Positions 7,564 to 35,334 are shown, numbered from the stretch's first letter. The stretch is 64,000 nt of DNA from a bacterium (GCA_021813145.1 JAKALS010000001.1:67515-131514), one strand, 5' to 3'. The notes: generated by a model from the letters alone, not told the origin. Numbers and translations are program-made.

Positions 7564-7579
7564 AATTGCTTTTTATTAA

Positions 7580-7616
7580 GACAACTCCTCGACTTGCGGC
7601 GAGGAGGTTGTCTTTT
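7580..7616 (+). terminator. Rho-independent terminator
   Basis: gacaactcctcg-acttgcgg-cgaggaggttgtc hairpin (about 12 bp with one bulge) followed by a TTTT tract. Confidence 0.65.
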
Positions 7617-7672
7617 GGGAATTTGGGATAGACGTTGACATAGAATCTAATTTTCATTATCATTCCTAAGTT

Positions 7673-7849: not shown

Positions 7850-7852
7850 TAG

Positions 7853-8764: not shown

Positions 8765-8768
8765 ATTT

Positions 8769-19706: not shown

Positions 19707-20714
19707 TTGATAAATGTCATGTTAAATACTTATTTGCATTTGAATACAAAACTTTTCGACAAAGATGTCGAACAAAAGCCGACACGGGACGGGTACGGAG
19801 AGGGGATTGTGCATTTGGGGCTTACGAACCCTGATGTAGTTGTCCTTACCGCCGATTTGTCCGAGAGTACGAGATGCGAAGAATTTGCCAAGAAGTTCCC
19901 CGAGAGGTTTTTTGAATGCGGAGTTGCCGAACAGAACATGGCAGCAGTTGCAGCAGGTCTTGCCGTCACGGGTAAAATTCCTTTTATAACTTCTTATGCC
20001 ACATTTTCTCCCGGAAAAAATTGGGAAACAATAAGAACGACAATCGTTTATAACAGGGCAAACGTTAAAGTCGCAGGACACCACAGCGGAATAGTAACGG
20101 GTCCGGACGGAGCAACTCATCAGGCTACGGAAGATATAGCAAGTGTCAGGTCATGGCCGGATATACGGGTGGTTATTCCCTGTGATTATATAGAAGCGAA
20201 AAAGGCTACTATTTATGCGGGCGAAACCGAAGGACCTTTTTACCTAAGATTCACCAGAGATAAGACTCCTGTAATTACGACAGAAAAAACTCCTTTTGAA
20301 AAAGAAAAGATACAGACTTTCTGGGTGAGCGAAAATCCCGTCGCAACAATATTCGGGACAGGACACCTTTTATATTACGCGCTTTTGGCGGCGAGAAATC
20401 TTGAAAAAAAGGGAATAAACGTTCTGGTCGCAAATGTTTCTTCAATAAAACCTCTGGACGGGGAAAAGGCAGTTGAACTGGCCCAAAAAACAGGTGCGGT
20501 TGTAGCCGTCGAAGACCATCAGACAACAGGAGGTCTGGGCGGAGCCTTAGCCGAATATTTTGCAAAAACAAAACCCGTACCGATGGAATTTATCGGACTT
20601 GCGGATACATTTGCAGAATCCGGGTCCGCTTTGGAACTCATTAAAAAATACGGAATGGACGAAACCGCAATAGAAAAAGCAGTGGAAAAGATAATAGAGA
20701 GAAAAGCGAAGTAA
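19707..20714 (+). CDS. Transketolase, C-terminal subunit
   Basis: Pyrimidine-binding and C-terminal domain sequence. Split-gene organisation continuing from the N-terminal subunit. Confidence 0.9.
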   Translation: MINVMLNTYLHLNTKLFDKDVEQKPTRDGYGEGIVHLGLTNPDVVVLTADLSESTRCEEFAKKFPERFFECGVAEQNMAAVAAGLAVTGKIPFITSYATFSPGKNWETIRTTIVYNRANVKVAGHHSGIVTGPDGATHQATEDIASVRSWPDIRVVIPCDYIEAKKATIYAGETEGPFYLRFTRDKTPVITTEKTPFEKEKIQTFWVSENPVATIFGTGHLLYYALLAARNLEKKGINVLVANVSSIKPLDGEKAVELAQKTGAVVAVEDHQTTGGLGGALAEYFAKTKPVPMEFIGLADTFAESGSALELIKKYGMDETAIEKAVEKIIERKAK

Positions 20715-20826
20715 ATTTTCGAAGTAGGAAGTAGGATATTTTTGAATTTGAACCTTTGATATATAAGGAATTCTGGAATTCAAGATCAAGAATCTCAAAG
20801 ATATCTGACTTTAAGAAATCAAATCT

Positions 20827-22479
20827 ATGGACTCGAATTTAATTGATGAATTAAAAAAAACGATAAAGGGTGATGTGCAAACAGACGAAGACACTCTTAA
20901 AACCTACAGCCATGATGCTTCTTTGTTTGAGGTAAAGCCCCAGGTTGTCGTCTTTCCAAAAGATAACGAAGACGTGGAAAACCTTGTAAAGTTTGTCCTA
21001 AAGCATAAAAATCAATATCAGAACCTTTCCTTAACCGGAAGAAGTGCCGGGACGGATATGGGAGGAGGTTCTATAAACGATTCCATAATAGTAGCCTTTG
21101 GAAAATACTTTAATAGTCCTCCGGTTATTTCGGGAAATACCGCAACTACCCAGCCGGGCGTTTTCTACAGAGATTTCGAAGCGGAAACCTTAAAACAGAG
21201 GCTTATTTTCCCTTCTTATCCGGCATCAAGAGAACTTTGTGCAATGGGCGGGATAGTAAATAACAATTCGGGGGGAGAAAAATCGCTTCAATATGGTAAG
21301 ACGGAAAAATATATAAAAAGAGTAAAAGTAGTCCTCGCCGACGGAAAGGAATACGAATTTAAAAAATTAAAGGAGGAGGAACTCAAAAAGAAAATCGAGC
21401 AAAAAGATTTTGAAGGCGAGATCTACAGAAAAATGTACGACCTTATTACAAAAAATTTTGACCGTCTCCAAAAAGCCAAACCTACGGTCTCGAAAAATTC
21501 GGCGGGGTATTACCTTTGGAATGTGTGGGATAAGGAAAACAAGACATTTGACCTTACAAAACTTTGGACAGGGGCTCAAGGAACTTTAGGATTATTGCTT
21601 GAGGCAGAGTTAGAGCTGGTTCCTGTATATAAACATCAGGAGATGGAAGTAATTTTCTTGAGGGATATGAGCCATTTAGGGCAGATAATAGATACTGTCT
21701 TACCGTTAAAACCCGAGAGTTTTGAAAGTTATGACGATAATACACTAAAACTTGCCCTCAAATATTTCCCGGAGTTTGCAAAAAAGCTGGGAATTTTCGG
21801 AATGTTTGAGGCCGGTCTTGCATTTTTCCCCGCATTTTTACAAATGTTGACAGGAAAACTCCCGAAGCTTATTTTACAGGTAGATTTTACAGGAGACGAT
21901 CCGGAAGTTCTTAGGGGAAAAATAAATACGCTGAGGGAAAAACTTAAACCTCTGCATCCTGTTACAAAAGTTTCGGTGGATTCTGCCGAGAAAAAATACT
22001 GGCTGGTAAGAAGGGAGAGTTTTAATTTGTTGCGTAATAAAATAAGAGATAAGCATACCGCTCCTTTTATAGACGATTTTGTAATAAATCCTCACGATAT
22101 TGCGGAAGTTATACCTCAGGTAACGGGAATTTTAGACAAACATCCGGAGTTTATTTTTACCGTGGCAGGACACGTCGGGGACGGTAACTTTCATATAATT
22201 CCTCTTGCTGACATTACCAACCCAAATGTGAGAAAACTTATTCCGCAGATTTCAAAACAGGTTTACGGCATAGTTTCCAAATATCACGGGTCCATAACGG
22301 GAGAGCATAATGACGGACTTATAAGAACGCCCTTTTTAAAGGAAATGTACGGAGAAGATATAGTAAAATTATTCGAGGAAACAAAGAAAATATTTGACCC
22401 ACAGAATATCTTTAACCCCCGTAAAAAAGTAGGAGGGGATCTTAATTATTCAATGGAGCATATAAGGGTTGACTGGTAA
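20827..22479 (+). CDS. FAD-linked oxidase (GlcD / D-lactate dehydrogenase-like, FAD_binding_4 plus C-terminal domain)
   Basis: VVVFPKDNEDVENLVKF...SLTGRSAGTDMGGGSI FAD-binding PCMH-type region. 550 aa. Confidence 0.8.
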   Translation: MDSNLIDELKKTIKGDVQTDEDTLKTYSHDASLFEVKPQVVVFPKDNEDVENLVKFVLKHKNQYQNLSLTGRSAGTDMGGGSINDSIIVAFGKYFNSPPVISGNTATTQPGVFYRDFEAETLKQRLIFPSYPASRELCAMGGIVNNNSGGEKSLQYGKTEKYIKRVKVVLADGKEYEFKKLKEEELKKKIEQKDFEGEIYRKMYDLITKNFDRLQKAKPTVSKNSAGYYLWNVWDKENKTFDLTKLWTGAQGTLGLLLEAELELVPVYKHQEMEVIFLRDMSHLGQIIDTVLPLKPESFESYDDNTLKLALKYFPEFAKKLGIFGMFEAGLAFFPAFLQMLTGKLPKLILQVDFTGDDPEVLRGKINTLREKLKPLHPVTKVSVDSAEKKYWLVRRESFNLLRNKIRDKHTAPFIDDFVINPHDIAEVIPQVTGILDKHPEFIFTVAGHVGDGNFHIIPLADITNPNVRKLIPQISKQVYGIVSKYHGSITGEHNDGLIRTPFLKEMYGEDIVKLFEETKKIFDPQNIFNPRKKVGGDLNYSMEHIRVDW

Positions 22480-22533
22480 AAACTCTTCTTAATTTTTCAG
22501 TTAAACTTCAGAAAATAATGTAAAATAATATCT

Positions 22534-23067
22534 ATGAGAAAATATTTTCAGATCAGTTTTTTTCTCGGACTATTCGGACTTTTGGTATTTGTTAGACAAT
22601 CTCTAGGTTTTGGAGACAGCCATAGAGTTATCGGACCGGTTGCAACGCCATTGTCTCCGGTAAATCCCTCAAGCAATCCTCAAGCTACCCCAGTCCCTTC
22701 ACAAGCGCCTTCTTCTTCCGGTTCAACTGCGGCAACTCCTAGTCCCGTTCCCGTGGGGCCGCAGATGATGCAAAAGAGGATGGGGCAGTATAAAGACGGA
22801 ACTTATACGGGAAGCGTACAGGACGCCTTTTATGGAAATATCCAGGTTCAGGCGGTTGTTTCGGGAGGAAGAATTACAGCCGTTAATTTTTTGCAGTATC
22901 CGAATGACAACGGTACTTCCCAGTATATAAACAGCCAGGCCGATCCGATGCTTGCCCAAGAAGCGATCCAGGCACAAAACGCGAACGTTGATATTATCTC
23001 GGGTGCTTCGGATTCCAGTATGGCTTTTCAGGCCTCTTTGACGGATGCTCTTTCTCAGGCTAAATAA
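22534..23067 (+). CDS. Secreted FMN-binding-domain protein (NqrC/RnfG/PplA-like), candidate flavinylation substrate
   Basis: Signal peptide, P/S/T linker, then YKDGTYTGS...VDIISGASDSS. The [ST]GA[ST] motif is the site of ApbE-mediated covalent FMN attachment. Confidence 0.7.
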   Translation: MRKYFQISFFLGLFGLLVFVRQSLGFGDSHRVIGPVATPLSPVNPSSNPQATPVPSQAPSSSGSTAATPSPVPVGPQMMQKRMGQYKDGTYTGSVQDAFYGNIQVQAVVSGGRITAVNFLQYPNDNGTSQYINSQADPMLAQEAIQAQNANVDIISGASDSSMAFQASLTDALSQAK

Positions 23068-23073
23068 TTAACA

Positions 23074-23808
23074 ATGAAAAAAACAACAACCGTAATGGGT
23101 ATGCCTTCTACAATAAATTTGGCCCAAGGCAATGCAAAAGAAGAGGATATAAATGAAGTTTTTTCATACTTTCATTACATTGATAATAAATTCAGCACTT
23201 ATAAAAAGGACAGTGAAATTTCACGAATAAACAGGAGAGAAATACGAAAAGAGGAATGGAGCAGGGAAATGGAAAAGATAATGAGCCTTTGCGAAAAGAC
23301 GAAAAAAGAAACAGAGGGTTATTTTGATATCAATATAAAAGGTTTAATGGATCCTTCGGGACTGGTTAAAGGTTATGCAATCTTGGAAGGGGCAAAAATT
23401 CTTCGAAAAAGGGGATACAAAAACTTTTTTGTGGAGATTGCGGGAGATATTCAGGCAGACGGATTTAGCAAAAAAGGTGAGAAATGGAAAATAGGCATAC
23501 AAAACCCTTTTGATTCAAGACAGGTAATTAAAATAGTACAATTAAGTAATATGGGCATTGCCACATCGGGAACATATATCCGGGCAGGACATATAAACAA
23601 CCCCAAAAGCGGTAAGCCTGCCGATGAAATCGCAGCAATTACAGTGATAGGGCCTGATGTTTACGAAGCGGACAGATTTGCGACTGCCGCTTTTGCTATG
23701 GGAGAAAAAGGAATAAATTTTATAGAAAACCTTAACGGCTTTGAGGGATATATGGTAAAGAAAAATAAGAAGGCTGTTATGACAAGGGGATTCCATAATT
23801 ACTTATGA
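23074..23808 (+). CDS. apbE: FAD:protein FMN transferase (ApbE family)
   Basis: GLVKGYAI, GDIQADG and IATSGTY motifs of ApbE. Adjacent to the FMN_bind protein. Confidence 0.8.
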   Translation: MKKTTTVMGMPSTINLAQGNAKEEDINEVFSYFHYIDNKFSTYKKDSEISRINRREIRKEEWSREMEKIMSLCEKTKKETEGYFDINIKGLMDPSGLVKGYAILEGAKILRKRGYKNFFVEIAGDIQADGFSKKGEKWKIGIQNPFDSRQVIKIVQLSNMGIATSGTYIRAGHINNPKSGKPADEIAAITVIGPDVYEADRFATAAFAMGEKGINFIENLNGFEGYMVKKNKKAVMTRGFHNYL

Positions 23809-23882
23809 TTTGCTTGCCATTTCTATTTATTTAAAAACTATGAATCAGTGGTAAATGGAAATCGAAAAATGAAAAATATGTT

Positions 23883-25409
23883 ATGAGATATATCGACAGA
23901 TTTTTAAATAAATTTACAATGTACAGGTTTACCCTGTACTATCTTATTTTTCTAATTGTCGCAGCCGCGCTTTTAGCGTACTTCGGACTTTTAAATTATA
24001 ACCCGATGGATATTCTTATAGAGGCCGGAGTTGCCGTGATAGTTTCTTATGCGGCAAACACTTTTTTTGCAAAGCTTTTCGGTGCGGTTACAAATTACGA
24101 ATCGGTATTTATTACGGCTTTAATCCTTGCCCTTATTGTTCCGGTTCAGTTTCCCCTTAACATGCTTTTTATGGTAGGAGCCGCGGGGGTTGCGATGGGG
24201 AGCAAATACCTTTTGACAATAGAAAAAAGACATATATTTAACCCTGCTGCTGTTTCTGTTGCTATGATATCCCTCCTTTCTCCCGAGCATGCGGCGACCT
24301 GGTGGGTTGGAAATCCTGTCATGCTCCCTTTCGTTCTAGCAGGAGGACTTTTGCTTGTTAGGAAAATTCAAAGAGAAACAATGGTTTTTTCTTTTCTCAT
24401 AGCATATTTTATAGCAATAGCTATAGCTGCGGTCATCAATACAGGTTCTCTTGTTGATATTGTTACAATTTGGCAGTCAAGCGTTTTCCATTCGGCGGTT
24501 TTTTTCTTTGCTTTTGTTATGCTTACGGAGCCGCTTACATCCCCTTCTAAAGAAAAAAAGCAGGGATATTACGGGTATTTTACCGCAATTTTGTATGCTA
24601 CGCCTATTCTGAGGGTTCTGAACTTTACTCCCGAGCTTTCACTGTGTATCGGAAACGCCTTTTCCTATTTCATCAGTCCCAATTACAGATATTCGCTGCC
24701 ATTAAAGTGGAAAAAACAGATTTCCCGGGACACATATGTTTTTGCTTTCGAACAGCCAAAATCAATTAAATATGAACCGGGTCAATATATGGAATGGACC
24801 CTTACGCATAAAAACACCGACAGCAGAGGGAACAGGAGATACTTTAGTCTTTCATCTTCTCCGACGGAAGGTGTGCTTATGACAACAGTAAAGTTTTATG
24901 ATCCTTCCAGTTCTTATAAAAAAGAACTTATAAATCTTCCCGAAGGACGCCAGGTCATTGCGGCTCAAGTGGCGGGGGATTTTGTGCTTCCTAAAAATTT
25001 AAAGGAACCTCTTGTTTTTATAGCTGGAGGCGTAGGTATAGCACCATTTAGAAGCATGGTGCAGTATATAATAGATAAAAATCTTCAGGTGAACATAATA
25101 CTTATTTATACAAACAGGACAAAAGAAGATATTCTTTTTGCAAATACATTTAAGGAAGCCGAGAAAAACGGAGTAAAAACAATATATAACCTTACAGATA
25201 TTAAAAGCGTTCCGGCCGACTGGCAAGGGACAACAGGTTATGTGACCAAAGAATTGGTGGAAAAAGAAATTCCGGATTACGGAACGAGGAAATTCTATAT
25301 CTCTGGTCCGCAGCTTATGGTACAAAGATTCGAGCAGACGCTTTTAGATACGGGAGTTTCTTCGAAAAATATTATTACGGATTTTTTCCCCGGTTATAAC
25401 GAGACCTGA
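23883..25409 (+). CDS. Membrane RnfD/NqrB-like domain fused to FNR-like FAD/NAD(P)-binding reductase domain
   Basis: N-terminal polytopic domain with the FNPAA motif of NqrB/RnfD. C-terminal RRYFSLSSSP (R-x-Y-S FAD motif) and GGVGIAPF (NAD(P) motif). Ends DFFPGYNET, like the FNR paralog at 48.5 kb. Confidence 0.7.
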   Translation: MRYIDRFLNKFTMYRFTLYYLIFLIVAAALLAYFGLLNYNPMDILIEAGVAVIVSYAANTFFAKLFGAVTNYESVFITALILALIVPVQFPLNMLFMVGAAGVAMGSKYLLTIEKRHIFNPAAVSVAMISLLSPEHAATWWVGNPVMLPFVLAGGLLLVRKIQRETMVFSFLIAYFIAIAIAAVINTGSLVDIVTIWQSSVFHSAVFFFAFVMLTEPLTSPSKEKKQGYYGYFTAILYATPILRVLNFTPELSLCIGNAFSYFISPNYRYSLPLKWKKQISRDTYVFAFEQPKSIKYEPGQYMEWTLTHKNTDSRGNRRYFSLSSSPTEGVLMTTVKFYDPSSSYKKELINLPEGRQVIAAQVAGDFVLPKNLKEPLVFIAGGVGIAPFRSMVQYIIDKNLQVNIILIYTNRTKEDILFANTFKEAEKNGVKTIYNLTDIKSVPADWQGTTGYVTKELVEKEIPDYGTRKFYISGPQLMVQRFEQTLLDTGVSSKNIITDFFPGYNET

Positions 25410-26387
25410 TCATTTTTTAAGTTCCGGAACAACTTCACGTCCTAACATTTCTATGAGGGATTTTCCATCTCCCGATGTTGCCGTTTGGATTGCTATTATT
25501 TCTGCGCCCATTTCTTTTAAAGGAAAATATGTTTTGATGTAATCCTGCGGTGTTGAGACAAGGGAATATTTTGAAAGTATTTCTTCTCTGCCCAGGGAGT
25601 CTGCCTGCTCCTGCAGTTTTTGCGGGTCATGTTCTTTGTTCCTCCCCGGAGCCCTAAGGCCGCGCCAGGGGCCTAACGCTTTCCATGCTTCGTCTTTATT
25701 CTTTCCGTATATACTCCATCTATTTGCAACTACTTTTAAAGGACTTTTTTTAAGCTGTTTTCTTTTTTCTTTTGCTGGGTTGATTACTTTTTCAATTTGT
25801 TCCCTAGGGTCTTTTACGCTTACTATTATTCCATCTGCAAATTCTGCGGCAAGTTCTGCCGATTTGGGTCCGCCTGCGGCCATATAAATAGGTATGTTAT
25901 GGAGGGGAGGACTGTAGAGTTTAACATCCGAAGTTTTATAAAACTCTCCGTTAAAAGTTAATTTTTCCCCGCTTAAAAGACTGCGCATTATTTTTAGCGA
26001 TTCGCGCATTCTGTCGGAGCGTTCTTTATAGGCAGGGAATTCAAAGCCGAGAGGAACTTCGTTTATTGCTTCTCCCGTTCCGACTCCCAAAGAAAATCTT
26101 CCGTTTGAAAGTCTGTCTATTGTGGCTGCCGCCTGAGCTACAACAGCGGGATGGTATCTGAAAAGAGGAGTTACAACTCCTGTCATAAGTTTTATCTTTT
26201 CCGTTTGCGCCGCAATTGCGCCTAGCGTTGAAAATGCAAATCCCGATGCTCCTAAATCGGCTACCCATGGATTAAAATGTTCGGACACAAAAAGTCCGTC
26301 AAAACCTGCTTTTTCCGCCGCTTTTGCAAATTCGAGCAGTTCTTCCGGATGAAAATCTTCGTGGCCTAAAAAGTAGTAAATTTCCAT
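25410..26387 (-). CDS. LLM-class (luciferase-like) flavin-dependent oxidoreductase
   Basis: FDGLFVSEHFNPW, SLGVGTGEA and TIM-barrel LLM signatures. Stop abuts the convergent upstream gene. Confidence 0.75.
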   Translation of the reverse strand: MEIYYFLGHEDFHPEELLEFAKAAEKAGFDGLFVSEHFNPWVADLGASGFAFSTLGAIAAQTEKIKLMTGVVTPLFRYHPAVVAQAAATIDRLSNGRFSLGVGTGEAINEVPLGFEFPAYKERSDRMRESLKIMRSLLSGEKLTFNGEFYKTSDVKLYSPPLHNIPIYMAAGGPKSAELAAEFADGIIVSVKDPREQIEKVINPAKEKRKQLKKSPLKVVANRWSIYGKNKDEAWKALGPWRGLRAPGRNKEHDPQKLQEQADSLGREEILSKYSLVSTPQDYIKTYFPLKEMGAEIIAIQTATSGDGKSLIEMLGREVVPELKK

Positions 26388-26424
26388 GTAATAATTATAA
26401 ACCCGGGAGGAAAGGGAAAAGCGG

Positions 26425-27051
26425 TTAAATTAGCTGGGCCACCTGGAGAGTTTTTTTAATCTGAAGCTTATTCATACCGAGTTTATCCAAAAGGTTTTTC
26501 CCTACCTGAAAAAAGCCAAGTGCTCTTATCGCTGCTTCTCTTGACCTGTTAAGATTGCGCGGTTTGATTTCTCCTTCTGCTATTCCTCCTACGAATTTTT
26601 TTAGTTCTGCTATTCTTTCAAGTGTTTCTCCCGCATTTCTAGGCGGCATAAGTGCTGCAAAAGTGGGCCAATCAGGATTTGTGGTAAGTTCAGGAGTAGC
26701 CAGTTCATGCATTGCTATAAAAATTCCCAGGGATATGCTGTAGCTTTCATTCCACCTTTTTTGAGAAGGCGTACCCTGAGACATCAATTGTGAATTCTCA
26801 TTGACGATTCTTTTTAAATCTCTTAAAGAAAACTCTTTTACGAGCTCGGGTCTCATGTTAAATCCCCTTTGTGCATCCTCTAAAAACGGGAGTGTACTTT
26901 GTTTTAAAAATTCTCTTCCCATTGAAGGGTTTGGGAGAGTGTCGGATAAAAGAAGGGGAATGAGAATTCCCGTTTCTCTCACAACATGAGAAGGCGAATC
27001 TATTTCTTCGCTTTTAAAAGCGGGCGCGGGAAAATATTCTCTTTCCGGCAT
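26425..27051 (-). CDS. Hypothetical protein
   Basis: 208-aa ORF. No recognised domain. Confidence 0.4.
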   Translation of the reverse strand: MPEREYFPAPAFKSEEIDSPSHVVRETGILIPLLLSDTLPNPSMGREFLKQSTLPFLEDAQRGFNMRPELVKEFSLRDLKRIVNENSQLMSQGTPSQKRWNESYSISLGIFIAMHELATPELTTNPDWPTFAALMPPRNAGETLERIAELKKFVGGIAEGEIKPRNLNRSREAAIRALGFFQVGKNLLDKLGMNKLQIKKTLQVAQLI

Positions 27052-27135
27052 ACAAAAAACTATTTCTGGATTTTATTTAAAAGCAGTGGTTTTTGTCAAT
27101 ATCAAAAAACTTCAGTGTTATAATTTAACCTAATT

Positions 27136-28302
27136 ATGAAAAGAGGAATAGCTACATTTACGCTCGATTACGGTAAAGCTCCTCCATGGCTTTTTGAAAG
27201 AATGGTAAAACTTTCAAGGGAAATGATAAGGGTTCTCGTTTTTGAATACGGGTCCGACGAATTTGTAAAAAGAATAGCCGATCCCGTATGGTTTCAGTCT
27301 TTAGGTACGGTTTTGGCATTCGACTGGAATGCGTCAGGTCTTACAACGGTTCTTACGGGAGCCTTAAAAGAAGCGATTAAAGGAGAAGAAAATGATTTGG
27401 GGGTTTTTATCTGCGGAGGAAAAGGAAAAGCTTCGAGAAAAACCCCTTCACAGATAGAAGGATGGGCCGGGGTAATAAATCTTTCAAAAAACATGACTGA
27501 CACTCTTATTAAAAATTCAAAGATGTCGGCAAAAGTAGATAGCGCACTAGTTCAGGACGGGTATTCGCTTTATCACCATGCTTTCTTTTTCTCCAAACCT
27601 TCAAAAAATTCTAAGGGCGCCTGGGCTGTCGTTCAGCAGGGAATGAATACAGGCAATAAGACGGCCAGAAGGTACCATTGGTACGATACTTTTTCCTCAA
27701 AACATGATTTCGTAAATGAACCCCACAAAGGAATTGCGTCGCAAAGATTTGAAAGGAATGTGCTAAATCTTGTTGCAGAGAAAAGTTCAAAGAATAGGGA
27801 AGTGAGCATGGGACTTATCGGTGAGGGTTATCAAAGCATGAAAAACGATATTGAGCTTTTGAGAAAATATGAAAATTCTCTTACTAAAATGCTTTCTCTA
27901 GGTTTTAAAGGGGACGAGTATACAGCAATAAATCTTAGAAGGGAAGATTTTAAGCATCATGAGGTGGAGTTTGAAAATTTTATAACAAACGGATATCTGG
28001 ATAAAATATTAAGGAAAATATCCGATGAAAACCCAAAAAGCTATGAACAGCTTGTAGCAACCGAAGGAGTGGGGGCAAGAACAATTAGGGCCATATCCCT
28101 TGTTTCCGAAGTTATTTACGGAGCAAAACCGTCCTACGAAGATCCCGCCCGCTACAGTTTTGCACACGGTGGAAAAGATGCGATTCCTTATGCCGTAGAA
28201 AAAGAAGTATATGATAAAACCATAGAAACAATAAGAAATGCGGTTAAAAAGACAAAACTTTCGCCTTTAGATAAAGACAAGATGCTAAGGAGAATTTCTT
28301 AA
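27136..28302 (+). CDS. DUF763 family protein
   Basis: N-terminal LDYGKAPPWLFERM and overall length of about 390 aa match my recollection of DUF763. Confidence 0.5.
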   Translation: MKRGIATFTLDYGKAPPWLFERMVKLSREMIRVLVFEYGSDEFVKRIADPVWFQSLGTVLAFDWNASGLTTVLTGALKEAIKGEENDLGVFICGGKGKASRKTPSQIEGWAGVINLSKNMTDTLIKNSKMSAKVDSALVQDGYSLYHHAFFFSKPSKNSKGAWAVVQQGMNTGNKTARRYHWYDTFSSKHDFVNEPHKGIASQRFERNVLNLVAEKSSKNREVSMGLIGEGYQSMKNDIELLRKYENSLTKMLSLGFKGDEYTAINLRREDFKHHEVEFENFITNGYLDKILRKISDENPKSYEQLVATEGVGARTIRAISLVSEVIYGAKPSYEDPARYSFAHGGKDAIPYAVEKEVYDKTIETIRNAVKKTKLSPLDKDKMLRRIS

Positions 28303-29324
28303 CTCGCAATTTCTTCGAGTTCCTGATTTTGGCTACTCTTTGTTTTTTTCCTGATTTTAATCGGTTCTTTAGGAGCCTCGCGATAAGTTCTTACTATTTC
28401 GGAGGGAGCAATATTTCTTTCAAGTACCTCAATGAGTTCTGAAACTGAATAAAAGGAATAAAGATCCTGGTTTCCTGCCCAACTTAAAAATCTTTGTGCT
28501 AGTTTACTTTCGGGCTCATCAAGATTATCTTCGCTTTTCTGGTATTTCCTTAACTCCTCCATCAAAGACCTCAAAGTTTCCCGCATCTGCAGGATTATTT
28601 TTCCCCGGTTTTTCCCGTAGCTTCTTGTATTTTTAAAAGTTTCATCGGAAGCTTTTTCAATTGTCGGATAAAGATAATTTTCGAGATCCGGAGAAATTAG
28701 CATCATCGAATATATCGTTCTTTCGGTGTTTCCCAAAACCTTTGCTTCTATTGATGGAAGAGGAAGGACATCTTCCGCTTTTATGCTTTCTTTAGTTTGA
28801 ACACAGAAAATCTCTACCGGCCGTCTTATTATCTGTCTTCCTTTTCCCATAATTACGGATGTCATGTACGGATCATAATAATCTTTATCCTGGGGTTTCG
28901 GGACATAATCCGTTTGGGGTTCATCTTCCCTAAGTACAGAAAGCAATTCCTCCGGTGTCATGTTTTCATTCCCCGGCTGCTGTCTTATTTCACCCAGAAG
29001 CTGGCTGATTTCTATATGAGGAATTCCTTCCTCCATTTCTTTAAGCCTTCTGACAACTCCGTCTACGGCTTTTACCGCAAGACGTTCGTATCTTCTTTTC
29101 AGCTTCTCTAAATCGGTATTCCCAGGATTGGATAATTGTGTATTGTAAACAGAATCCAACAGTGAAGGATCATGTCTTCCGCTGTATCTATATGTCCCGT
29201 CAGGATTTTTTTCGGTAATTCCAAGTATTAGTTTTCTTTGGGAGAAACCGACAGTGTAGTCTTTATGTATAAATCTTTCCCCGGCCACGAAGGTTTTTAT
29301 ACATTTTTTATATTCAAATGTCAA
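28299..29324 (-). CDS. Hypothetical protein
   Basis: 341-aa ORF. Convergent 4-nt overlap with the DUF763 gene. Confidence 0.4.
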   Translation of the reverse strand: MTFEYKKCIKTFVAGERFIHKDYTVGFSQRKLILGITEKNPDGTYRYSGRHDPSLLDSVYNTQLSNPGNTDLEKLKRRYERLAVKAVDGVVRRLKEMEEGIPHIEISQLLGEIRQQPGNENMTPEELLSVLREDEPQTDYVPKPQDKDYYDPYMTSVIMGKGRQIIRRPVEIFCVQTKESIKAEDVLPLPSIEAKVLGNTERTIYSMMLISPDLENYLYPTIEKASDETFKNTRSYGKNRGKIILQMRETLRSLMEELRKYQKSEDNLDEPESKLAQRFLSWAGNQDLYSFYSVSELIEVLERNIAPSEIVRTYREAPKEPIKIRKKTKSSQNQELEEIAS

Positions 29325-29833: not shown

Positions 29834-30505
29834 GTGAAGATACTCGTAATAGAAGACGAACACAAAATAGCAAACCTTTTAAAACAGGGTCTTGAGCAGG
29901 AGAGATATGTCATCGATGTTGCTTATGACGGAACATCGGGATTTGATTTCGCAACTGCCGAGGAATATGACCTTATAATCCTAGACAGGATGCTTCCGGG
30001 GCTCGATGGGATGGATATTTGTAAAAACCTCAGAGAAAAGGGGAATAACACTCCCATTTTGATGTTGACCGCAAAAGTACAGATACAGGATAGGGTGGAG
30101 GGCCTAAATTGCGGGGCAGATGATTATCTTACAAAACCCTTTGCTTTTGAAGAGCTTTTGGCAAGGGTAAAAGCTTTGGGCAGAAGACCAAAAGGAGCAG
30201 TTGGAAACATTTTTAAGGTCGAAGATTTGACTTTAGATGTTTCGGGATTTGAAGTTAAAAGAGGAAAAAGGATTATTCCTCTTTCTTCAAAAGAATTTGC
30301 TCTTTTGGAATATCTTGTAAGAAATAAAAATAAAACTCTCACGAAAGAGCAGATAATAAGCCATGTTTGGAGTTACGATTCCGATATTCTGCCGAATACC
30401 GTAGAAGTTTTTATAGGGTATCTAAGAAATAAGATAGATAAGCCTTTTAAAGGCAAAAAGCCGTTGATCAATACGATAAGAGGATTCGGATATAAAATAG
30501 GATAA
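29834..30505 (+). CDS. OmpR-family two-component response regulator
   Basis: Receiver domain with phospho-acceptor Asp (LIILDRMLPGLDG) and winged-helix C-domain. Confidence 0.9.
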   Translation: MKILVIEDEHKIANLLKQGLEQERYVIDVAYDGTSGFDFATAEEYDLIILDRMLPGLDGMDICKNLREKGNNTPILMLTAKVQIQDRVEGLNCGADDYLTKPFAFEELLARVKALGRRPKGAVGNIFKVEDLTLDVSGFEVKRGKRIIPLSSKEFALLEYLVRNKNKTLTKEQIISHVWSYDSDILPNTVEVFIGYLRNKIDKPFKGKKPLINTIRGFGYKIG

Positions 30506-30507
30506 AT

Positions 30508-31548
30508 ATGCATGTTTTTAATTCTGCAAGAATAAAGTTATCCCTCTGGTATCTTCTGATAATAATGATAATCAGCATTTCTTTCAGCGCCTTTATCTAC
30601 TATGGCGGGACACGGGAATTAAACAGGATAGTAAGAGTAGAGCAATATCATGACCAGCATCCCCAGCTCAGGGCTCTTCCTTCGGCTTTGCCGGATTCCG
30701 ACAGGATTTTAATTATTACGAATCCCAACCAGCAGATAATCGAGCAGGAAAAACTCAGGATCTTTGAAAGTCTTCTGGTCGTAAACATTTTTATACTTTT
30801 AGCTTCTTCTCTTGCAGGATATTTTCTTGCCGGAAGAACTCTCGGGCCAATAAAAAATATGGTAGATGAGCAAAACCGTTTTATAACAGATGCTTCGCAC
30901 GAATTGAATACTCCGCTTACTTCTTTAAAAACCTCTATTGAGGTAAACTTGCGGGATAAAAATTTGAATCTTGAAAAATCAAAAGGTGTGCTTTTGAGTA
31001 ATCTTGAAGAAGTAAATAATCTTCAGGCTCTTTCCGCCGAGCTTATAAAGATAACTCAATACCAAAAGGTAAACGGAAACCTAAATTTTGAAAAAATCGA
31101 TATAAGAAAGCCTATAGCTACAGCGGTATCCAAGGTTAACACTTTGGCGGCCAAGAAAAAAATAAAGATCAACGTAAAAGCAGCAAGACAATTCGTAGAC
31201 GGTGACGCAAGAAGTCTTACCGAACTTTTTACGGTACTTTTGGATAATGCCGTAAAATATAGTCCTAATAAGAAAGACATTTTTGTAACCGCGGATTCTT
31301 TCGATTCAAAAGTTAGAGTAAGCGTAAAAGACAGAGGAATGGGAATAGACAAGGAAGATTTGCCCCTTATATTCGACAGATTCTATAGAGCCGATAAGTC
31401 GAGGACAAAGCAGGAGGTTTCAGGATACGGGTTGGGATTGTCTATTGCAAAAAGGATAGTAGACCTTCACAATGGAACAATAAACGCCGAAAGCGAAAAA
31501 GGAACGGGAACAACTTTTACGGTTGTTTTTCCAAGGTCCAGAGTTTAA
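30508..31548 (+). CDS. Sensor histidine kinase
   Basis: Two N-terminal TMs, H-box HELNTPLTSLK, and HATPase N and G boxes. Confidence 0.85.
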   Translation: MHVFNSARIKLSLWYLLIIMIISISFSAFIYYGGTRELNRIVRVEQYHDQHPQLRALPSALPDSDRILIITNPNQQIIEQEKLRIFESLLVVNIFILLASSLAGYFLAGRTLGPIKNMVDEQNRFITDASHELNTPLTSLKTSIEVNLRDKNLNLEKSKGVLLSNLEEVNNLQALSAELIKITQYQKVNGNLNFEKIDIRKPIATAVSKVNTLAAKKKIKINVKAARQFVDGDARSLTELFTVLLDNAVKYSPNKKDIFVTADSFDSKVRVSVKDRGMGIDKEDLPLIFDRFYRADKSRTKQEVSGYGLGLSIAKRIVDLHNGTINAESEKGTGTTFTVVFPRSRV

Positions 31549-31584
31549 GCAGTTTCTCAGCTTTTAGAGAATATAATTATTTAA

Positions 31585-32856
31585 ATGACTAACTTTATTT
31601 CAGGTATTAATAAGTTTGTAGGACGGCATAAAAAAATTACGGGGTTAATCATAATAATTGCACTGGTGGGTGTATTTTTATACACCAGAGTTTCTTCTTC
31701 GTCTAATAAACCTCAATATCAAACGGCACAGGTAACAAAAGGGACACTTGTTGTGAGCGTGACAGAATCTGGACAGGTTTCTGTTTCCAATAAGGCAAGT
31801 GTTGTTACGCAGGCAAGTGGTATCGTTAATAATGTATATGTTAAAACGGGAGATTATGTAAGTGCGGGGGCGAAAATAGCGGATGTTACGCTTGATACCG
31901 CGGGTCAGCAAAGACAGGCCCAGGCATGGTCTTCGTATCTTAACGCCCAGAATTCTCTGGCAAGTGCGCAGGCAAATCTTTACACCCTGCAAAATCAGGA
32001 ATTTGTCGCAAACCAGAAATTCATGAACGATGCCGTCGCAAATAATATGCCGACCAATGACCCCATTTATATAGAAGAACAGGCAACATGGCTGGCGGCA
32101 GAGGCTGCTTATAAAAATCAGACGGGAGTAATAAACCAGGCTCAGTCTGCATTAAACAACGCAAGTTTGGCATATCAGCTTACTTCGGGAACTATTACGG
32201 CGCCCACTTCCGGAACGGTAGGCGATTTGACTATCACCAAGGGGATGCAGATAGGCTCAAGCAATACTACAGCTGGTTCTTCCACGAATGTCTCAAACCA
32301 GCAAATAGCGTCTATAAGTACGGGAAACCCGAACACGGTTTCTATAAACATAGCCGAAGTGGACGCGCCTCAGGTTAAAGTTGGGCAGGATACAACGGTA
32401 ACATTTGATGCTTTGCCGAATAAAACATTCACGGGAAAAGTTATAGGCATAAATACAACGGGAACCGTAACCTCGGGAGTAACGACTTACCCGGCGGTAA
32501 TAGAACTGGACAGCTCGGGAGGAGATATTTATCCTAATATGAGCGCAACCGCAAATATTATTACAAAGATAGACAATAATGTCTTGCTTATTCCGACAAG
32601 TGCAGTTCAGACAGTAGGTACCCAGTCGACAGTAAGGGTGATTAATAACGGACAGGTAACGACTGTTCCCGTAACAACTGGAGACAGTTCAAGTACCCAG
32701 ACGGTTATTACTTCCGGTCTTACAGATGGAGAAACTGTTGTTACGGGAGTAATCTCCGGAGGAAGTTCTTCTTCAAGCTCGCCGTTTGGAGGGGGATTAA
32801 GAGTAGGGGGCGGAGGCGGCGCTGTCTTTAGAGGAGCAGGAGGAAGAGGTGGCTAA
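31585..32856 (+). CDS. Efflux transporter periplasmic adaptor subunit (HlyD/MacA-like) with Gly-rich C-terminal tail
   Basis: N-terminal TM, then coiled-coil and beta-barrel adaptor architecture. Precedes MacB-like ABC genes. Confidence 0.7.
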   Translation: MTNFISGINKFVGRHKKITGLIIIIALVGVFLYTRVSSSSNKPQYQTAQVTKGTLVVSVTESGQVSVSNKASVVTQASGIVNNVYVKTGDYVSAGAKIADVTLDTAGQQRQAQAWSSYLNAQNSLASAQANLYTLQNQEFVANQKFMNDAVANNMPTNDPIYIEEQATWLAAEAAYKNQTGVINQAQSALNNASLAYQLTSGTITAPTSGTVGDLTITKGMQIGSSNTTAGSSTNVSNQQIASISTGNPNTVSINIAEVDAPQVKVGQDTTVTFDALPNKTFTGKVIGINTTGTVTSGVTTYPAVIELDSSGGDIYPNMSATANIITKIDNNVLLIPTSAVQTVGTQSTVRVINNGQVTTVPVTTGDSSSTQTVITSGLTDGETVVTGVISGGSSSSSSPFGGGLRVGGGGGAVFRGAGGRGG

Positions 32857-32861
32857 TAATT

Positions 32862-33560
32862 ATGGATCAGATTTCGGTTTCGAACGTAAGCAAAATCTAC
32901 AAAACGGGTGATGTGGATACAACCGCCCTGGATAATGTTTCATTTTCCGTAAAAAAAGGTGAATTTGTTGCCATAATGGGCCCTTCGGGAAGCGGAAAAT
33001 CTACTTTAATGCATATTTTGGGGGCTTTGGATACTCCTACTTCGGGCACTTATATTCTTGACGGTGAGCAGGTAGGAAAACTTTCAAAAGATAAACTTGC
33101 AGAAATAAGGAATAGGAAAATCGGATTTGTTTTTCAGGCATTTAATCTTTTACCAAGGACAACCGCTCTAAAAAATGTTGAATTGCCGATGACTTATGCA
33201 GGGGTAGATAAAGATGAAAGAATAAAAAGAGCAGAAGAGCTCCTAAAAGAGGTAGGGCTTGGTGACAGAATGGACCATACCAGCAATCAGCTGTCGGGAG
33301 GACAGATGCAGAGGGTTGCTATAGCAAGAGCATTATCTATGAATCCCGCAATAATTTTAGCAGACGAACCGACCGGAAATATCTCTTCCGCTCAAAGCGA
33401 CGAAATAATGCATATTTTCCAGAACCTCCAAAAGCAGGGACACACAATAGTAATGATTACACACGAACCTTCGGTTGCCAGATGGGCAGAAAGGGTGATA
33501 CATATAAAAGACGGAAAAATAGAAAAAGAAGAAGGAAACGGAAAGGGGAGAAAGAAATAA
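32862..33560 (+). CDS. ABC transporter ATP-binding protein (MacB/LolD-type)
   Basis: Walker A GPSGSGKST, signature LSGGQMQRVAIARAL, Walker B ILADEPTGN. Confidence 0.9.
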   Translation: MDQISVSNVSKIYKTGDVDTTALDNVSFSVKKGEFVAIMGPSGSGKSTLMHILGALDTPTSGTYILDGEQVGKLSKDKLAEIRNRKIGFVFQAFNLLPRTTALKNVELPMTYAGVDKDERIKRAEELLKEVGLGDRMDHTSNQLSGGQMQRVAIARALSMNPAIILADEPTGNISSAQSDEIMHIFQNLQKQGHTIVMITHEPSVARWAERVIHIKDGKIEKEEGNGKGRKK

Positions 33561-34783
33561 TGAATTTTTCGGAACTAATTGCCTCCTCGTTTGAAGCTTT
33601 AAAACTAAATAAAGTAAGAACGGCTTTGGCGGGATTGGGAATAGTTATAGGTATAGGTGCGGTTATTGCTCTTGTTTCTTTGGGTCAGGCAACACAGCAG
33701 TCTGTACAAAACTCGATTGAAGGGTTGGGAGCAAATCTTATTACCATTATTCCGGGCTCCCAGGCAACTGCCGGTGGGGTTCAGGGAGGATTCGGCACGA
33801 GCGAGACGCTTACGCTCGATGACGCCAATGCAATAGCTTCGGCTAATTTTCCCTCCATAAGCCAAGTTTCACCCGAACTTTCAAGACGTGCCCAGGTAAC
33901 AGCAGGAAAAAATAACACAAATACTTCAATTATCGGAGTTACCCCAACTTATCCTGCGGTCCATAATGTAACGATGGATTCGGGAACATTTATAACCGCT
34001 TCGGATGTGGCTTCAAACAGGGAAGTTGCGGTTTTGGGTCCCACGGTGGTAAGCGATTTATTCGGGACGGGCGTTGATCCGACAGGGCAGTCTATAAGGA
34101 TAAACAAAATCCCGTTTACCGTAATCGGGGTAACGGTTTCCAAGGGTGGAACGGGATTCGGAAATCAGGATGACACCGTTTTTATTCCGATAACAACTGC
34201 CCAGAAGACAGTTTTTGGCGTAAATTATATATCAGATATTTCATTGTCTGCTTCAAGTTCCAACGATATGACACAGGCCGAAAACGATGCGGGTTATCTT
34301 TTATTAAGGCTTCATAAAATTTCCAATCCCCAAAGCGCGGATTTTAGTATGGTTTCCCAGTCGGATATCCTAAGTACCGCGTCGTCTGTGACCGGGACTT
34401 TCACTGCCCTTTTGGCAGGAATAGCCGCTATATCTCTTTTGGTAGGAGGAATAGGAATTATGAACATAATGCTTGTTACCGTAATAGAAAGAACAAGGGA
34501 AATCGGATTAAGGAAAGCTCTTGGCGCAAAGGATAACACGGTTATACAACAGTTTCTTATAGAATCCATAATACTTACAATCGGAGGGGGAGTAGTAGGT
34601 ATGATTCTTGGAATAATTCTTTCTTATATAATATCGACCGCGATAAGCCTTCCATTTACGATTTCCTTAACTTCAATCGCATTGGCGATCGGTGTTAGCG
34701 GCGGAATAGGAATTTTGTTTGGATGGTATCCTGCAAAAAAAGCAGCAGATCTTTCTCCAATTGAAGCATTGCGTTATGAATAA
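33560..34783 (+). CDS. ABC transporter permease (MacB/FtsX family)
   Basis: N-terminal TM, large periplasmic domain and C-terminal FtsX 3-TM bundle. ATG at 33560 overlaps the ATPase stop (ATAATG). Confidence 0.85.
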   Translation: MNFSELIASSFEALKLNKVRTALAGLGIVIGIGAVIALVSLGQATQQSVQNSIEGLGANLITIIPGSQATAGGVQGGFGTSETLTLDDANAIASANFPSISQVSPELSRRAQVTAGKNNTNTSIIGVTPTYPAVHNVTMDSGTFITASDVASNREVAVLGPTVVSDLFGTGVDPTGQSIRINKIPFTVIGVTVSKGGTGFGNQDDTVFIPITTAQKTVFGVNYISDISLSASSSNDMTQAENDAGYLLLRLHKISNPQSADFSMVSQSDILSTASSVTGTFTALLAGIAAISLLVGGIGIMNIMLVTVIERTREIGLRKALGAKDNTVIQQFLIESIILTIGGGVVGMILGIILSYIISTAISLPFTISLTSIALAIGVSGGIGILFGWYPAKKAADLSPIEALRYE

Positions 34784-34830
34784 CGTAAATGATTAAAGAG
34801 TAGGTTCTAGGTTTTAAATTTTAAAAGGGG

Positions 34831-35307: not shown

Positions 35308-35334
35308 AGTTTATTTACTTGTTATAATAGGTAA

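Follow-up and report, generated by a model that had tools for sequence, protein, structure and literature searches.

Gene content of the locus

The window is the whole stretch of DNA analysed (64,000 nucleotides of a bacterial genome). Five neighbouring genes encode an FAD-linked oxidase, an FMN_bind protein of 177 aa, a flavin transferase (ApbE), a protein of 508 aa in which an NqrB/RnfD-like membrane domain is fused to an FNR-type reductase domain, and, on the opposite strand, a luciferase-like (LLM) oxidoreductase. The features are listed in Table 1. All five open reading frames are real at the coordinates given, and each domain assignment of the initial annotation scores above the Pfam gathering cutoff (FAD_binding_4, FMN_bind, ApbE, NQR2_RnfD_RnfE and FAD_binding_6/NAD_binding_1). 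The oxidase resembles the N-terminal half of GlcD/YdiJ, and its NCBIfam matches are all far below the equivalog cutoffs; the LLM oxidoreductase passes the NCBIfam model TIGR03557 (225.9 against a cutoff of 210.4).

As had been claimed, Pfam finds no Nqr or Rnf subunits, NDH-2 or quinone-biosynthesis genes among the approximately 55 other open reading frames of the window. No genes for Ndh2, EetA/EetB, demethylmenaquinone (DMK) biosynthesis or PplA of the FLEET system were found in the window either. The only related match in the window is a sub-threshold one to RnfC_N at 43268–44026 (20.1 bits; cutoff 25.6).

Table 1. Features of the locus (positions counted from the first nucleotide of the window)
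Feature	Position	Strand	Evidence
FAD-linked 2-hydroxyacid-type oxidase/dehydrogenase, cytoplasmic; neighbour outside the conserved unit	20827–22479	+	FAD_binding_4 83 bits, FAD-oxidase_C 128 bits
NqrC/RnfG-like FMN_bind partner, predicted flavinylation target, 177 aa	22534–23067	+	Pfam FMN_bind 31.9 bits (cutoff 22)
N-terminal signal-anchor helix of the partner (predicted), residues 7–25	22552–22608	+	Hydropathy peak after MRK
Flavinylation motif D153-I-I-S-G-A-S159, S159 the predicted FMN-phosphoester acceptor	22990–23010	+	Conserved motif
Leaderless ApbE, FAD:protein FMN transferase	23074–23808	+	Pfam ApbE 157 bits
RnfD/NqrB–FNR fusion, 508 aa	23883–25409	+	Pfam NQR2_RnfD_RnfE 53 bits, FAD_binding_6, NAD_binding_1
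NqrB/RnfD-like 10-helix membrane domain, residues 1–266	23883–24680	+	
FNPAA motif, residues 119–123	24237–24251	+	Common to RnfD
Seven-residue loop EHAATWW (predicted outward), residues 135–141	24285–24305	+	Remnant of the NqrB/RnfD flavinylated-Thr loop
T-E-P motif, residues 215–217	24525–24533	+	E216 aligns with NqrB D346 and the RnfD TDP motif
Cytoplasmic FNR-type FAD/NAD(P)H reductase domain, residues 272–508 plus stop codon	24696–25409	+	
LLM oxidoreductase, tail-to-tail with the fusion gene; neighbour outside the unit	25410–26387	−	Bac_luciferase 207 bits
Loosely associated block: OmpR-type response regulator, histidine kinase, membrane-fusion protein, MacB-type ABC ATPase and permease, DUF5666 protein, CDF cation-efflux protein	29834–36252	+	Pfam

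The FMN_bind partner and ApbE

The FMN_bind protein begins with MRK and a 19-aa hydrophobic helix, which by hydropathy is consistent with a signal anchor, followed by a Pro/Ser/Thr-rich tether of 63 aa. In its relatives the median linker is 51 aa long, with P/S/T/A/G/Q/N making up 74% of the residues; low-charge Pro/Ser/Thr tethers are typical of extracytoplasmic stalks. Among 58 homologues, the flanks of the helix carry on average 2.3 K+R on the N-terminal side and 1.3 on the C-terminal side, so that an N-in, C-out orientation is predicted; the bias is clearest in the Chloroflexota members (3–4 K/R before the helix, 0–1 after it). Based on these features, the protein, previously annotated as secreted, is better described as membrane-anchored. 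Its [ST]GA[ST]-type flavinylation motif stands: all homologues examined carry D-x-[IV]-[ST]-G-A-[ST] at a distance of 21–25 residues (mostly 22–23) from the C-terminus, and the window contains no D..[ST]GA[ST] motif other than the copy in the partner.

The best PDB match of the FMN_bind domain profile is 8p2a_A (SaFMN3-D2, E 7.5e-20), and no PDB match to NqrC or RnfG appears at E≤1. In sequence, the domain is similar to free-standing actinobacterial FMN domains, which counts against the electron-export reading that we prefer below.

ApbE matches PDB ApbE 5mgy_H (E 3e-23), and its C-terminal core (residues 92–236) aligns full length to 5mgy and 6nxi, with a deletion of about 45 aa in the helical insert. 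Together with the Pfam score, these alignments place the protein in the ApbE family by fold and by core FAD/Mg2+-binding motifs. The assignment therefore holds, with the correction that the enzyme lacks a signal peptide: the reading frame begins seven residues before the first conserved strand and is preceded by a stop codon, which leaves no room for a leader. Neither a signal peptide nor a transmembrane helix is present in any of the 68 related loci in which ApbE was found, whereas an extracytoplasmic lipoprotein or secretion signal is typical of the family, although not universal. As judged from the predicted topologies, a leaderless ApbE conflicts with a target facing the outside, unless flavinylation precedes export. 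No discussion of the consistently leaderless enzyme was found in PMC8238504 or PMC10979944, and the point seems not to have been raised before.

The membrane–reductase fusion protein

The FNPAA motif reported in the membrane domain was confirmed. F119, N120, P121 and A123 are invariant among 25 homologues and A122 is conserved in at least 90%; the motif aligns with FNPAMLA at residue 121 of RnfD 8ahx_D. The T-E-P motif aligns with FFMATDPV of NqrB and ATDPVTSP of RnfD, and E216 and P217 are invariant among the homologues. The AF2 model has a pLDDT of 83.5 and a pTM of 0.72.

In the profile alignment, residue 120 of the fusion corresponds to residue 121 of RnfD and residue 150 to residue 221, so that about 70 residues spanning the flavinylation loop have been deleted. 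The periplasmic loop in which canonical D/B subunits carry covalent FMN-Thr in an SGAT-type motif is missing, and none of the 25 fusion proteins contains an [ST]GA[ST] motif. In the short loop that is left, A138, W140 and W141 are invariant. Its K+R content is about 0.08 and it is therefore predicted to face outward; by the K+R pattern of the protein as a whole, the FNR domain would lie on the inner side of the membrane and the ATWW loop on the outer side.

Conservation of the gene cluster

We sampled 80 related loci from Patescibacteria (Levybacteria, other Microgenomates, Saccharibacteria) and Chloroflexota. Only three of the five genes form the conserved unit, namely those of the FMN_bind protein, ApbE and the fusion, whose order and strand are kept in 61 of the 80 loci; the FMN_bind gene precedes the fusion gene, in the same orientation, in 67. 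The median intergenic gaps of 2 and −2 nt indicate an operon, and ApbE is translationally coupled to its FMN_bind target in most loci. The co-oriented four-gene conduit proposed initially is thus conserved as a trio but not with the oxidase, a homologue of which lies near the fusion gene in only two loci (L008 and L028). The LLM oxidoreductase, which had also been counted as part of the module, adjoins the fusion gene in one locus (L007). These counts mark both neighbours as lineage-specific. The closest relative locus (L003, 79% identical) lacks the oxidase upstream of the cassette and also the five-gene block that contains the LLM gene.

Relatives of the fusion protein are found in at least 586 species genomes, across which the fused architecture is kept at 44–79% identity. 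At E≤1e-30 there are 235 clusters (50% identity) with a match to the N-terminal domain, and most of the 150 clusters listed are approximately 480–530 aa long, i.e. of the fused form. Concerning the recurrent neighbours in the 80 loci, there is no acceptor gene conserved beside the cassette and no other subunit of the six-subunit RnfABCDGE or NqrABCDEF sets. The two-component and ABC-efflux block occurs with the same genes and order directly after the cassette in L003; in flanks sampled up to about 8 kb, a response regulator–kinase pair is present in about 20 of the 80 loci and a MacB module in about 9–11.

Proposed function and alternative explanations

We consider it likely that the three conserved genes constitute an NQR/RNF-like transmembrane electron-export cassette of a Levybacteria-like (Patescibacteria/CPR) genome; it probably carries electrons from intracellular NAD(P)H across the membrane to a flavin protein tethered on the outer side. 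The trio fits the earlier view of a pared-down NQR/Rnf relative. In the cytoplasmic FNR domain, FAD would oxidise NAD(P)H and pass the electrons to the membrane domain, probably through a putative non-covalent flavin situated near the cytoplasmic face, at the riboflavin position of NqrB/RnfD. In NqrB/RnfD, this riboflavin and the FMN near the periplasmic face are about 8 Å apart (PMC12174285). The electrons would then reach the FMN covalently bound to Ser159 of the partner, whose FMN_bind domain, held outside the membrane by the N-terminal helix and the flexible linker, would dock in the outward pocket that houses the covalent FMN in NqrB/RnfD and whose flavinylated loop has been lost here. 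We infer this docking from a published AlphaFold-multimer model of a Ktedonobacter homologue, a two-subunit complex with the FMN of the partner docked on the NqrB/RnfD-like subunit (PMC10979944). ApbE would install the FMN from FAD. The tethered flavin may finally reduce an external acceptor encoded outside the cassette (O2, Fe(III) or another soluble oxidant are candidates), and overall a fermentative cell would thereby regain NAD(P)+. A potential of −184 mV and reoxidation by O2 are described for SaFMN3, the FMN_bind domain closest to that of the partner among solved structures (PMC10339131).

An unlikely alternative is that the FMN_bind domain is flavinylated and works in the cytoplasm, where it would link the FNR domain to the membrane domain as an electron shuttle, or pass electrons to an acceptor in the cytoplasm or membrane, with no export. 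Flavinylation inside the cell is suggested by the invariably leaderless ApbE, tightly coupled to its target, and cytoplasmic ApbE enzymes that modify cytoplasmic FMN_bind domains are known, e.g. for Klebsiella fumarate reductase (PMC12052999). Against it, the positive-inside rule puts the FMN_bind domain outside, the low-charge tether is of the stalk type, the vacated FMN pocket with the ATWW loop is predicted to face outward, and the published multimer model has the partner on the outer face.

It is even less probable that all five genes, including the convergent LLM gene, form one conduit fed by the FAD-linked 2-hydroxyacid oxidase. The oxidase gene stops 54 nt short of the FMN_bind gene, which shares its strand, with no convincing terminator between them, and in L028, another Levybacteria locus, a close homologue of the oxidase is located 3.1 kb ahead of the fusion gene; there, however, two opposite-strand genes separate the two, and FMN_bind and ApbE are absent. 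The rarity of both flanking genes near the fusion, their absence from L003 and the position of the LLM gene in a block inserted relative to that locus argue against a single conduit. Nor is there an evident route by which the oxidase could feed electrons in: the substrate of the FNR domain is NAD(P)H, and the oxidase lacks any domain for reducing NAD(P) or docking to a partner.

That the locus is simply part of a canonical Rnf or Nqr operon, or what is left of a decayed one, as the label 'RnfABCDGE type electron transport complex subunit D' given to homologues in some databases might imply, is hardly credible given the lack of any further subunit in the window, the wide retention of the fused form, the family-specific deletion of the flavinylated loop, and the intact reading frames with many invariant columns.

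Comparison with known systems

The proposed electron-export cassette shares with Na+-NQR and Rnf the FNPA and T(D/E)P motifs and an FMN_bind subunit that is, in the cassette by prediction, flavinylated by ApbE, and with Na+-NQR an NAD(P)H/FAD module of the FNR type, comparable to the C-terminal portion of NqrF. Those complexes have six subunits, whereas the cassette complex is predicted to have two: it lacks the NqrD/E or RnfA/E intramembrane [2Fe-2S] unit, NqrA, RnfC and RnfB, its B/D-type subunit has lost the covalent-FMN loop, and the FNR domain is fused straight to the membrane domain without the ferredoxin domain of NqrF. Electron flow in the cassette is presumed to be one-way outward, in contrast to the semicircular path of Na+-NQR and Rnf.

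The likeness to a FLEET-like device, suggested initially, is one of analogy only. Listeria FLEET (Ndh2, EetA/B, DMK, PplA, FmnA/B, RibU) likewise uses an ApbE-type transferase to flavinylate a surface-tethered FMN_bind protein and moves electrons from cytoplasmic NADH to outside acceptors, the role proposed for the cassette. FLEET relies on Ndh2, EetA/B and a demethylmenaquinone step, which the cassette lacks; membrane passage in the cassette would be through an RnfD-like flavoprotein. The cassette partner scores 19.6 bits against the NCBIfam PplA model (cutoff 325) and is helix-anchored with one FMN domain instead of being a lipoprotein. Listeria FmnB is itself anchored as a lipoprotein. While FmnB is located outside the cytosol (PMC9973259), the cassette ApbE has no leader.

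Streptomyces azureus SaFMN3 (PDB 8p2a; PMC10339131) has an N-terminal anchor like the cassette partner, but it contains three tandem domains and has no identified electron donor, whereas the single domain of the partner is encoded beside its likely donor. The cassette also differs from transmembrane NAD(P)H oxidoreductases of the NOX/FRE type: these enzymes (e.g. SpNOX, PDB 8qq7/8qt6) have a six-helix di-haem ferric-reductase domain, in contrast to the Amt/urea-transporter-related RnfD fold of the cassette, and H117 is the only invariant histidine of the fusion, which makes bis-His haem ligation unlikely.

The cassette shows no essential difference from the 'NQR/RNF-like system' described by Méheust et al. 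2021 in eLife (PMC8238504) and Huang et al. 2024 (PMC10979944), mainly in Actinobacteria and the candidate phyla radiation; its architecture is already published, and the initial annotation overstated its novelty. No biochemical characterisation of any member was found in the literature. As in the definition of Méheust et al., one protein joins a PF03116 membrane domain (NqrB/RnfD) at its N-terminus to an NqrF-like PF00175 NAD-binding domain at its C-terminus, and where ApbE and/or FMN_bind are expected within five genes, both are here immediately upstream on the same strand. The refinement of Huang et al., in which the NqrB/RnfD flavinylation site is lost, agrees with the loop deletion and with a motif carried by all partner homologues and by none of the fusions examined. 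CPR hosts and a proposed one-way path from NAD(P)H to the outside are also shared. Our analysis adds a tighter three-gene unit, a wider spread that includes many Chloroflexota, frequent adjacency to a two-component system and a consistently leaderless ApbE.

Gene and domain content of the locus

The five ORFs of the locus and their domains are as the initial annotation had given them, the coordinates being exact and each domain scoring above its Pfam gathering threshold. They are presented, together with the other features of the window, in the table below. The oxidase is similar to the N-terminal half of YdiJ/GlcD, with a score far under every equivalog cutoff (NCBIfam). The neighbouring genes (split transketolase, glycerate kinase, DUF763 and a baeRF-family gene) are consistent with a CPR genome, and among named organisms Candidatus Levybacteria/Levyibacteriota and other Patescibacteria stand nearest. 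It had also been claimed that the window contains no other Nqr/Rnf, NDH-2 or quinone-biosynthesis gene, and none is found by Pfam among the ~55 further ORFs scanned.

Features of the window and their domain assignments
Feature	Position	Strand	Length (aa)	Domains and remarks
Protein of no assigned family	6424-7563	+	379	No Pfam/NCBIfam match
Cytochrome b/b6-like protein	8769-10157	+	462	Cytochrom_B_N_2, Cytochrome_B (Pfam)
FAD-linked oxidase	20827-22479	+		FAD_binding_4, FAD-oxidase_C (Pfam)
FMN_bind protein (partner)	22534-23067	+	177	FMN_bind (Pfam)
ApbE	23074-23808	+		ApbE (Pfam)
NqrB/RnfD-FNR fusion	23883-25409	+	508	NQR2_RnfD_RnfE, FAD_binding_6, NAD_binding_1 (Pfam)
Five genes additional to L003	25410-29815			Between cassette and regulator/efflux block
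LLM gene	25410-26387	-		Bac_luciferase (Pfam); above TIGR03557 subfamily cutoff (NCBIfam)
Protein of no assigned family	26425-27051	-	208	No Pfam/NCBIfam match
Protein of no assigned family	28299-29324	-	341	No Pfam/NCBIfam match
Regulator/efflux block	29834-36252	+		Same genes and order as in L003
Putative barrel protein	43268-44026	+	252	RnfC_N, sub-threshold
Stand-alone FNR-type protein	48488-49180	-	230	FAD_binding_6, NAD_binding_1
Na+/H+ exchanger	49279-50970			TrkA_N domain

Other redox-related ORFs are also present in the window. The cytochrome b/b6-like protein, a second membrane redox candidate in a CPR genome presumed to be fermentative, carries its domain at the N-terminus (Cytochrom_B_N_2 49.9 bits, Cytochrome_B 31.4 bits) and matches the NCBIfam cytochrome b6 and ExtP models at ~66 bits, under their cutoffs; it contains two His pairs as for di-haem cytochrome b (H68/H82 and H158/H173), and no Rieske or cytochrome c partner is found among the scanned ORFs of the window. 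The stand-alone FNR-type protein is a paralogue of the reductase domain of the fusion (phmmer E 4e-32) and its gene adjoins that of the Na+/H+ exchanger. The match of the 252-aa ORF to RnfC_N (barrel-sandwich hybrid) is below threshold (20.1 bits vs a cutoff of 25.6); an S41 peptidase and an HtrA-like protease are located downstream, and the ORF probably codes for a generic lipoyl/HlyD-like barrel and not for a subunit of Rnf.

Concerning regulatory elements, promoter and terminator counts in 20500-27300 do not exceed the shuffle expectation, so the limits of the operon are not definable by that scan. The Rfam scan of the 64-kb window gives no match at gathering score, so that tRNA, rRNA and riboswitches, a flavin riboswitch included, are undetected.

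Distribution and neighbourhood of the three-gene unit

Relatives of the fusion are encoded in at least 586 species-representative genomes. Its N-terminal domain alone gives 235 clusters (50% identity) at E<=1e-30, and among the 150 listed the fused length prevails; judged from these sequences, the family is sizeable. We selected 80 related loci from species-representative genomes and searched their ORFs with the proteins of the window. The loci belong to Levybacteria, other Microgenomates, Saccharibacteria, several Paceibacteria-type groups and many Chloroflexota, and their fusion proteins are 44-79% identical to the window copy. The order FMN_bind-ApbE-fusion on a single strand is found in 61 of the 80 loci, and 7 of the 19 exceptions are truncated at contig ends. 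The genes are closely spaced: usually a few bases at most separate the ApbE start from the FMN_bind stop (median gap 2 nt), and the median ApbE/fusion gap is -2 nt. In six variant loci (L024, L027, L029, L032, L046 and L059) FMN_bind lies directly 5' of the fusion. ApbE is undetected within five of these loci, and L027 contains a distant ApbE-like ORF (38 bits), likewise leaderless, upstream of FMN_bind.

The initial annotation had proposed a four-gene module beginning with the oxidase, and had placed the LLM gene with it. The trio stands, as the counts above demonstrate, and the two flanking genes fall outside it: the oxidase is near the fusion in only two of the 80 loci (L008 and L028), and the LLM gene is next to it in only one (L007). 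In L008 the oxidase is 8 kb away on the opposite strand. In L028 (Candidatus Levybacteria CG2_30_37_29, 4848-9521) a close oxidase homologue is located about 1.4-3.1 kb upstream of the fusion, with two opposite-strand membrane or secreted ORFs between them, and FMN_bind and ApbE are absent. A further ORF of L028 (9846-10604) resembles a transposase/integrase by eye, which hints at a local rearrangement. The closest relative, L003 (79% identity), has no oxidase within the 1.7 kb of upstream sequence present. Based on their rarity and on the layout of L003, the oxidase and the LLM gene are lineage-specific neighbours. Also, the oxidase is without an obvious route into the NAD(P)H-taking FNR domain.

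Right after the cassette, L003 contains a response regulator, a histidine kinase, a membrane-fusion protein, a MacB-type ABC ATPase and permease, DUF5666 and a CDF transporter. The same series is present in the window, where it is separated from the cassette by five additional genes: the LLM gene, two of no assigned family, DUF763 and baeRF. The 208-aa and 341-aa ORFs without a Pfam/NCBIfam match lie in this intervening block.

Looking at the sampled flanks (up to ~8 kb), a two-component system is found in ~20 of the 80 loci, and in ~12 of them it is immediately adjacent to the cassette. Across Patescibacteria and Chloroflexota, an OmpR-type response regulator with a histidine kinase is found repeatedly beside the cassette, often accompanied by the membrane-fusion protein, MacB-type ABC transporter, DUF5666 and CDF transporter; the MacB-type efflux module with DUF5666, sometimes with a CDF transporter or P-type ATPase, is near the cassette in ~10 loci. 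These neighbours suggest a regulated, envelope- or metal-related use of the cassette. No conserved acceptor gene is found near it, families beyond regulators and transporters occurring in at most ~11 of the 80 loci each.

The fusion protein and its partner

The AlphaFold2 model of the fusion (25 homologues) is confident (pLDDT 83.5, pTM 0.72). The C-terminal half matches FNR-type reductases, among them cytochrome b5 reductase, NqrF and the SpNOX dehydrogenase domain. For the N-terminal domain phmmer returns no match in PDB, and a profile search reaches RnfD and NqrB where phmmer failed. The FNPAA motif named in the initial annotation is real and corresponds to residues 119-123, of which F119, N120, P121 and A123 are invariant in the 25 homologues and A122 is conserved in at least 90%. 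In the profile alignment FNPA falls on RnfD residue 121 and query residues 150-249 fall on RnfD 221-320; these offsets indicate that ~70 residues are missing, which correspond to the outward loop with the flavinylated Thr in RnfD/NqrB. The remnant of the loop is seven residues long (EHAATWW; A138, W140 and W141 invariant), and the [ST]GA[ST] motif is found in none of the 25 fusion proteins. The alternation of K+R in the loops predicts an outward ATWW loop, an inward N-terminus and, with a count of either 8 or 10 helices, an inward FNR domain. A T-E-P motif with invariant E216 aligns in the profile alignment to the RnfD TDP motif and to D346 of V. cholerae NqrB, which belongs to a set of acidic residues that have been implicated in Na+ translocation. 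Passage of electrons through the membrane by haem is unlikely because the membrane domain contains a single invariant histidine.

All homologues of the 177-aa partner share one layout: a short, basic N-terminus ([KR]-K-[YF]), a single hydrophobic helix, a linker of low charge, an FMN_bind domain of ~95 residues and the flavinylation motif. The linker varies from 25 to 87 residues (median 51), and the median linker consists to 74% of P/S/T/A/G/Q/N. The motif, D-x-[IV]-[ST]-G-A-[ST], is present in every homologue at 21-25 residues (mostly 22-23) before the C-terminus; in the window protein it is D-I-I-S-G-A-S (residues 153-159), the motif already recognised in the initial annotation and the only one of its kind in the window. 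The positive-charge bias, strongest in the Chloroflexota members, predicts an N-in, C-out orientation. The nearest solved structure to the FMN_bind domain by sequence is SaFMN3-D2 of Streptomyces azureus (8p2a, E 7.5e-20), and no NqrC or RnfG structure in PDB is matched at E<=1 in the profile search. The published midpoint potential of SaFMN3 is -184 mV, and O2 reoxidises the protein at 1.2 s-1 (PMC10339131).

A leaderless ApbE

The C-terminal core of the window ApbE (residues 92-236) aligns to characterised FAD:protein FMN transferases, with a deletion of ~45 residues within the helical insert. The ORF starts 7 residues ahead of the first conserved strand and 6 bases after the FMN_bind stop; gene callers begin it at Met8, giving 237 aa. 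A signal peptide is found in none of the 68 loci which carry the gene (L003-L082 set), and all 68 have in common the leaderless start MK(Q/K)T..IMGMP.T.E. Cytoplasmic ApbE enzymes are known, and these serve cytoplasmic targets (PMC12052999). A leaderless ApbE conflicts with a target domain predicted to lie outside the cell, and we found no discussion of this mismatch in Méheust et al. 2021 (PMC8238504) or Huang et al. 2024 (PMC10979944).

One way out would be a second, secreted ApbE, possibly encoded elsewhere in the genome. Another is suggested by the tight translational coupling of FMN_bind and ApbE, which would be compatible with flavinylation of the nascent partner in the cytoplasm before export. 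Export of the pre-folded, flavinylated partner by Tat is unsupported, the N-terminal [KR]-K-[YF] having no twin arginine; no Tat genes are seen within the 64-kb window. A conserved read-through or frameshift fusion of FMN_bind and ApbE is ruled out, since loci differ in the relative frame of the two genes: the three relations are found in 30, 14 and 11 of 55 loci, the last being the same frame. The window ORFs share a frame, with TAA and two codons between them.

Proposed electron path and its implications

In the mechanism that we consider most likely, NAD(P)H would reduce the FAD of the cytoplasmic FNR domain, which would hand the electrons to a flavin bound non-covalently in the RnfD-like domain, at its riboflavin position. 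The riboflavin site and the outward FMN site are ~8 A apart in NqrB and RnfD (PMC12174285). The non-covalent flavin would in turn reduce the covalent FMN of the partner, a tethered protein that would dock at the ATWW pocket, and from this FMN the electrons would finally reach an external oxidant. As no conserved neighbour encodes an acceptor, O2, Fe(III) or another small molecule is plausible.

We consider it rather improbable that the cassette is more than a passive electron vent, in either or both of two ways which do not exclude each other. The outward flow of electrons might be coupled to Na+ or H+ movement, making the cassette a minimal redox-driven ion pump; this is conceivable because an invariant acidic residue, E216, is kept at the position of NqrB D346 (the TDP motif). 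The NqrB/RnfD domain is the subunit proposed as the Na+ carrier in NQR. Such a pump would provide 'fermentative' CPR bacteria with a two-protein, quinone-free, energy-conserving NAD(P)H oxidoreductase. Also, the leaderless, translationally coupled ApbE may attach FMN to the partner in the cytoplasm, ahead of its export, which would make FAD export needless. We know of no description of such a route for extracytoplasmic flavoproteins.

The usual model of CPR/Patescibacteria is that of strict fermenters which have no respiratory chain. A conserved two-protein transmembrane device for NAD(P)H electrons would let them regenerate NAD(P)+ with outside oxidants; it would possibly also serve O2 detoxification or iron reduction, and may shape the interaction with the host. 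The NAD(P)+-regeneration idea for CPR is already in the literature, and the present case is confirmatory. What is added here is the definition of a three-gene unit, wide in Patescibacteria and Chloroflexota, with two spurious components removed, and a directly testable point, the leaderless ApbE with a target predicted outside the cell. The remaining interest lies in that ApbE, in the terminal acceptor and in possible ion movement by the retained NqrB-like domain.

Comparison with known systems

The initial annotation had compared the locus with FLEET and with NQR/Rnf. Ndh2, EetA/B, DMK and PplA are all absent from the window, and so the cassette is not FLEET. Nor is it a canonical Rnf or Nqr, since it lacks both their subunit set and the covalent-FMN loop. 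The description as a pared-down NQR/Rnf relative was right: the cassette shows every defining feature that could be tested of the published NQR/RNF-like system. As defined by Méheust et al. 2021 (PMC8238504), this is a PF03116-PF00175 fusion within a flavinylation gene cluster, with 127 clusters chiefly from Actinobacteria and the candidate phyla radiation. Huang et al. 2024 (PMC10979944) modelled a two-subunit complex of Ktedonobacter racemifer, in which the NqrB/RnfD-like subunit has lost its flavinylation site, and proposed that the covalent FMN of the partner samples the vacated flavin site. The novelty of the architecture had thus been overstated, as these two papers already contain it (PMC8238504, PMC10979944). 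Our literature search found no biochemical study of the system, and the window cassette is a further case of a published, biochemically uncharacterised one. NOX/FRE enzymes are functional analogues with a different, haem-based membrane domain. Compared with Rnf, the proposed path resembles the RnfC-to-RnfD-to-RnfG half in reverse, with the FNR domain in place of RnfC.
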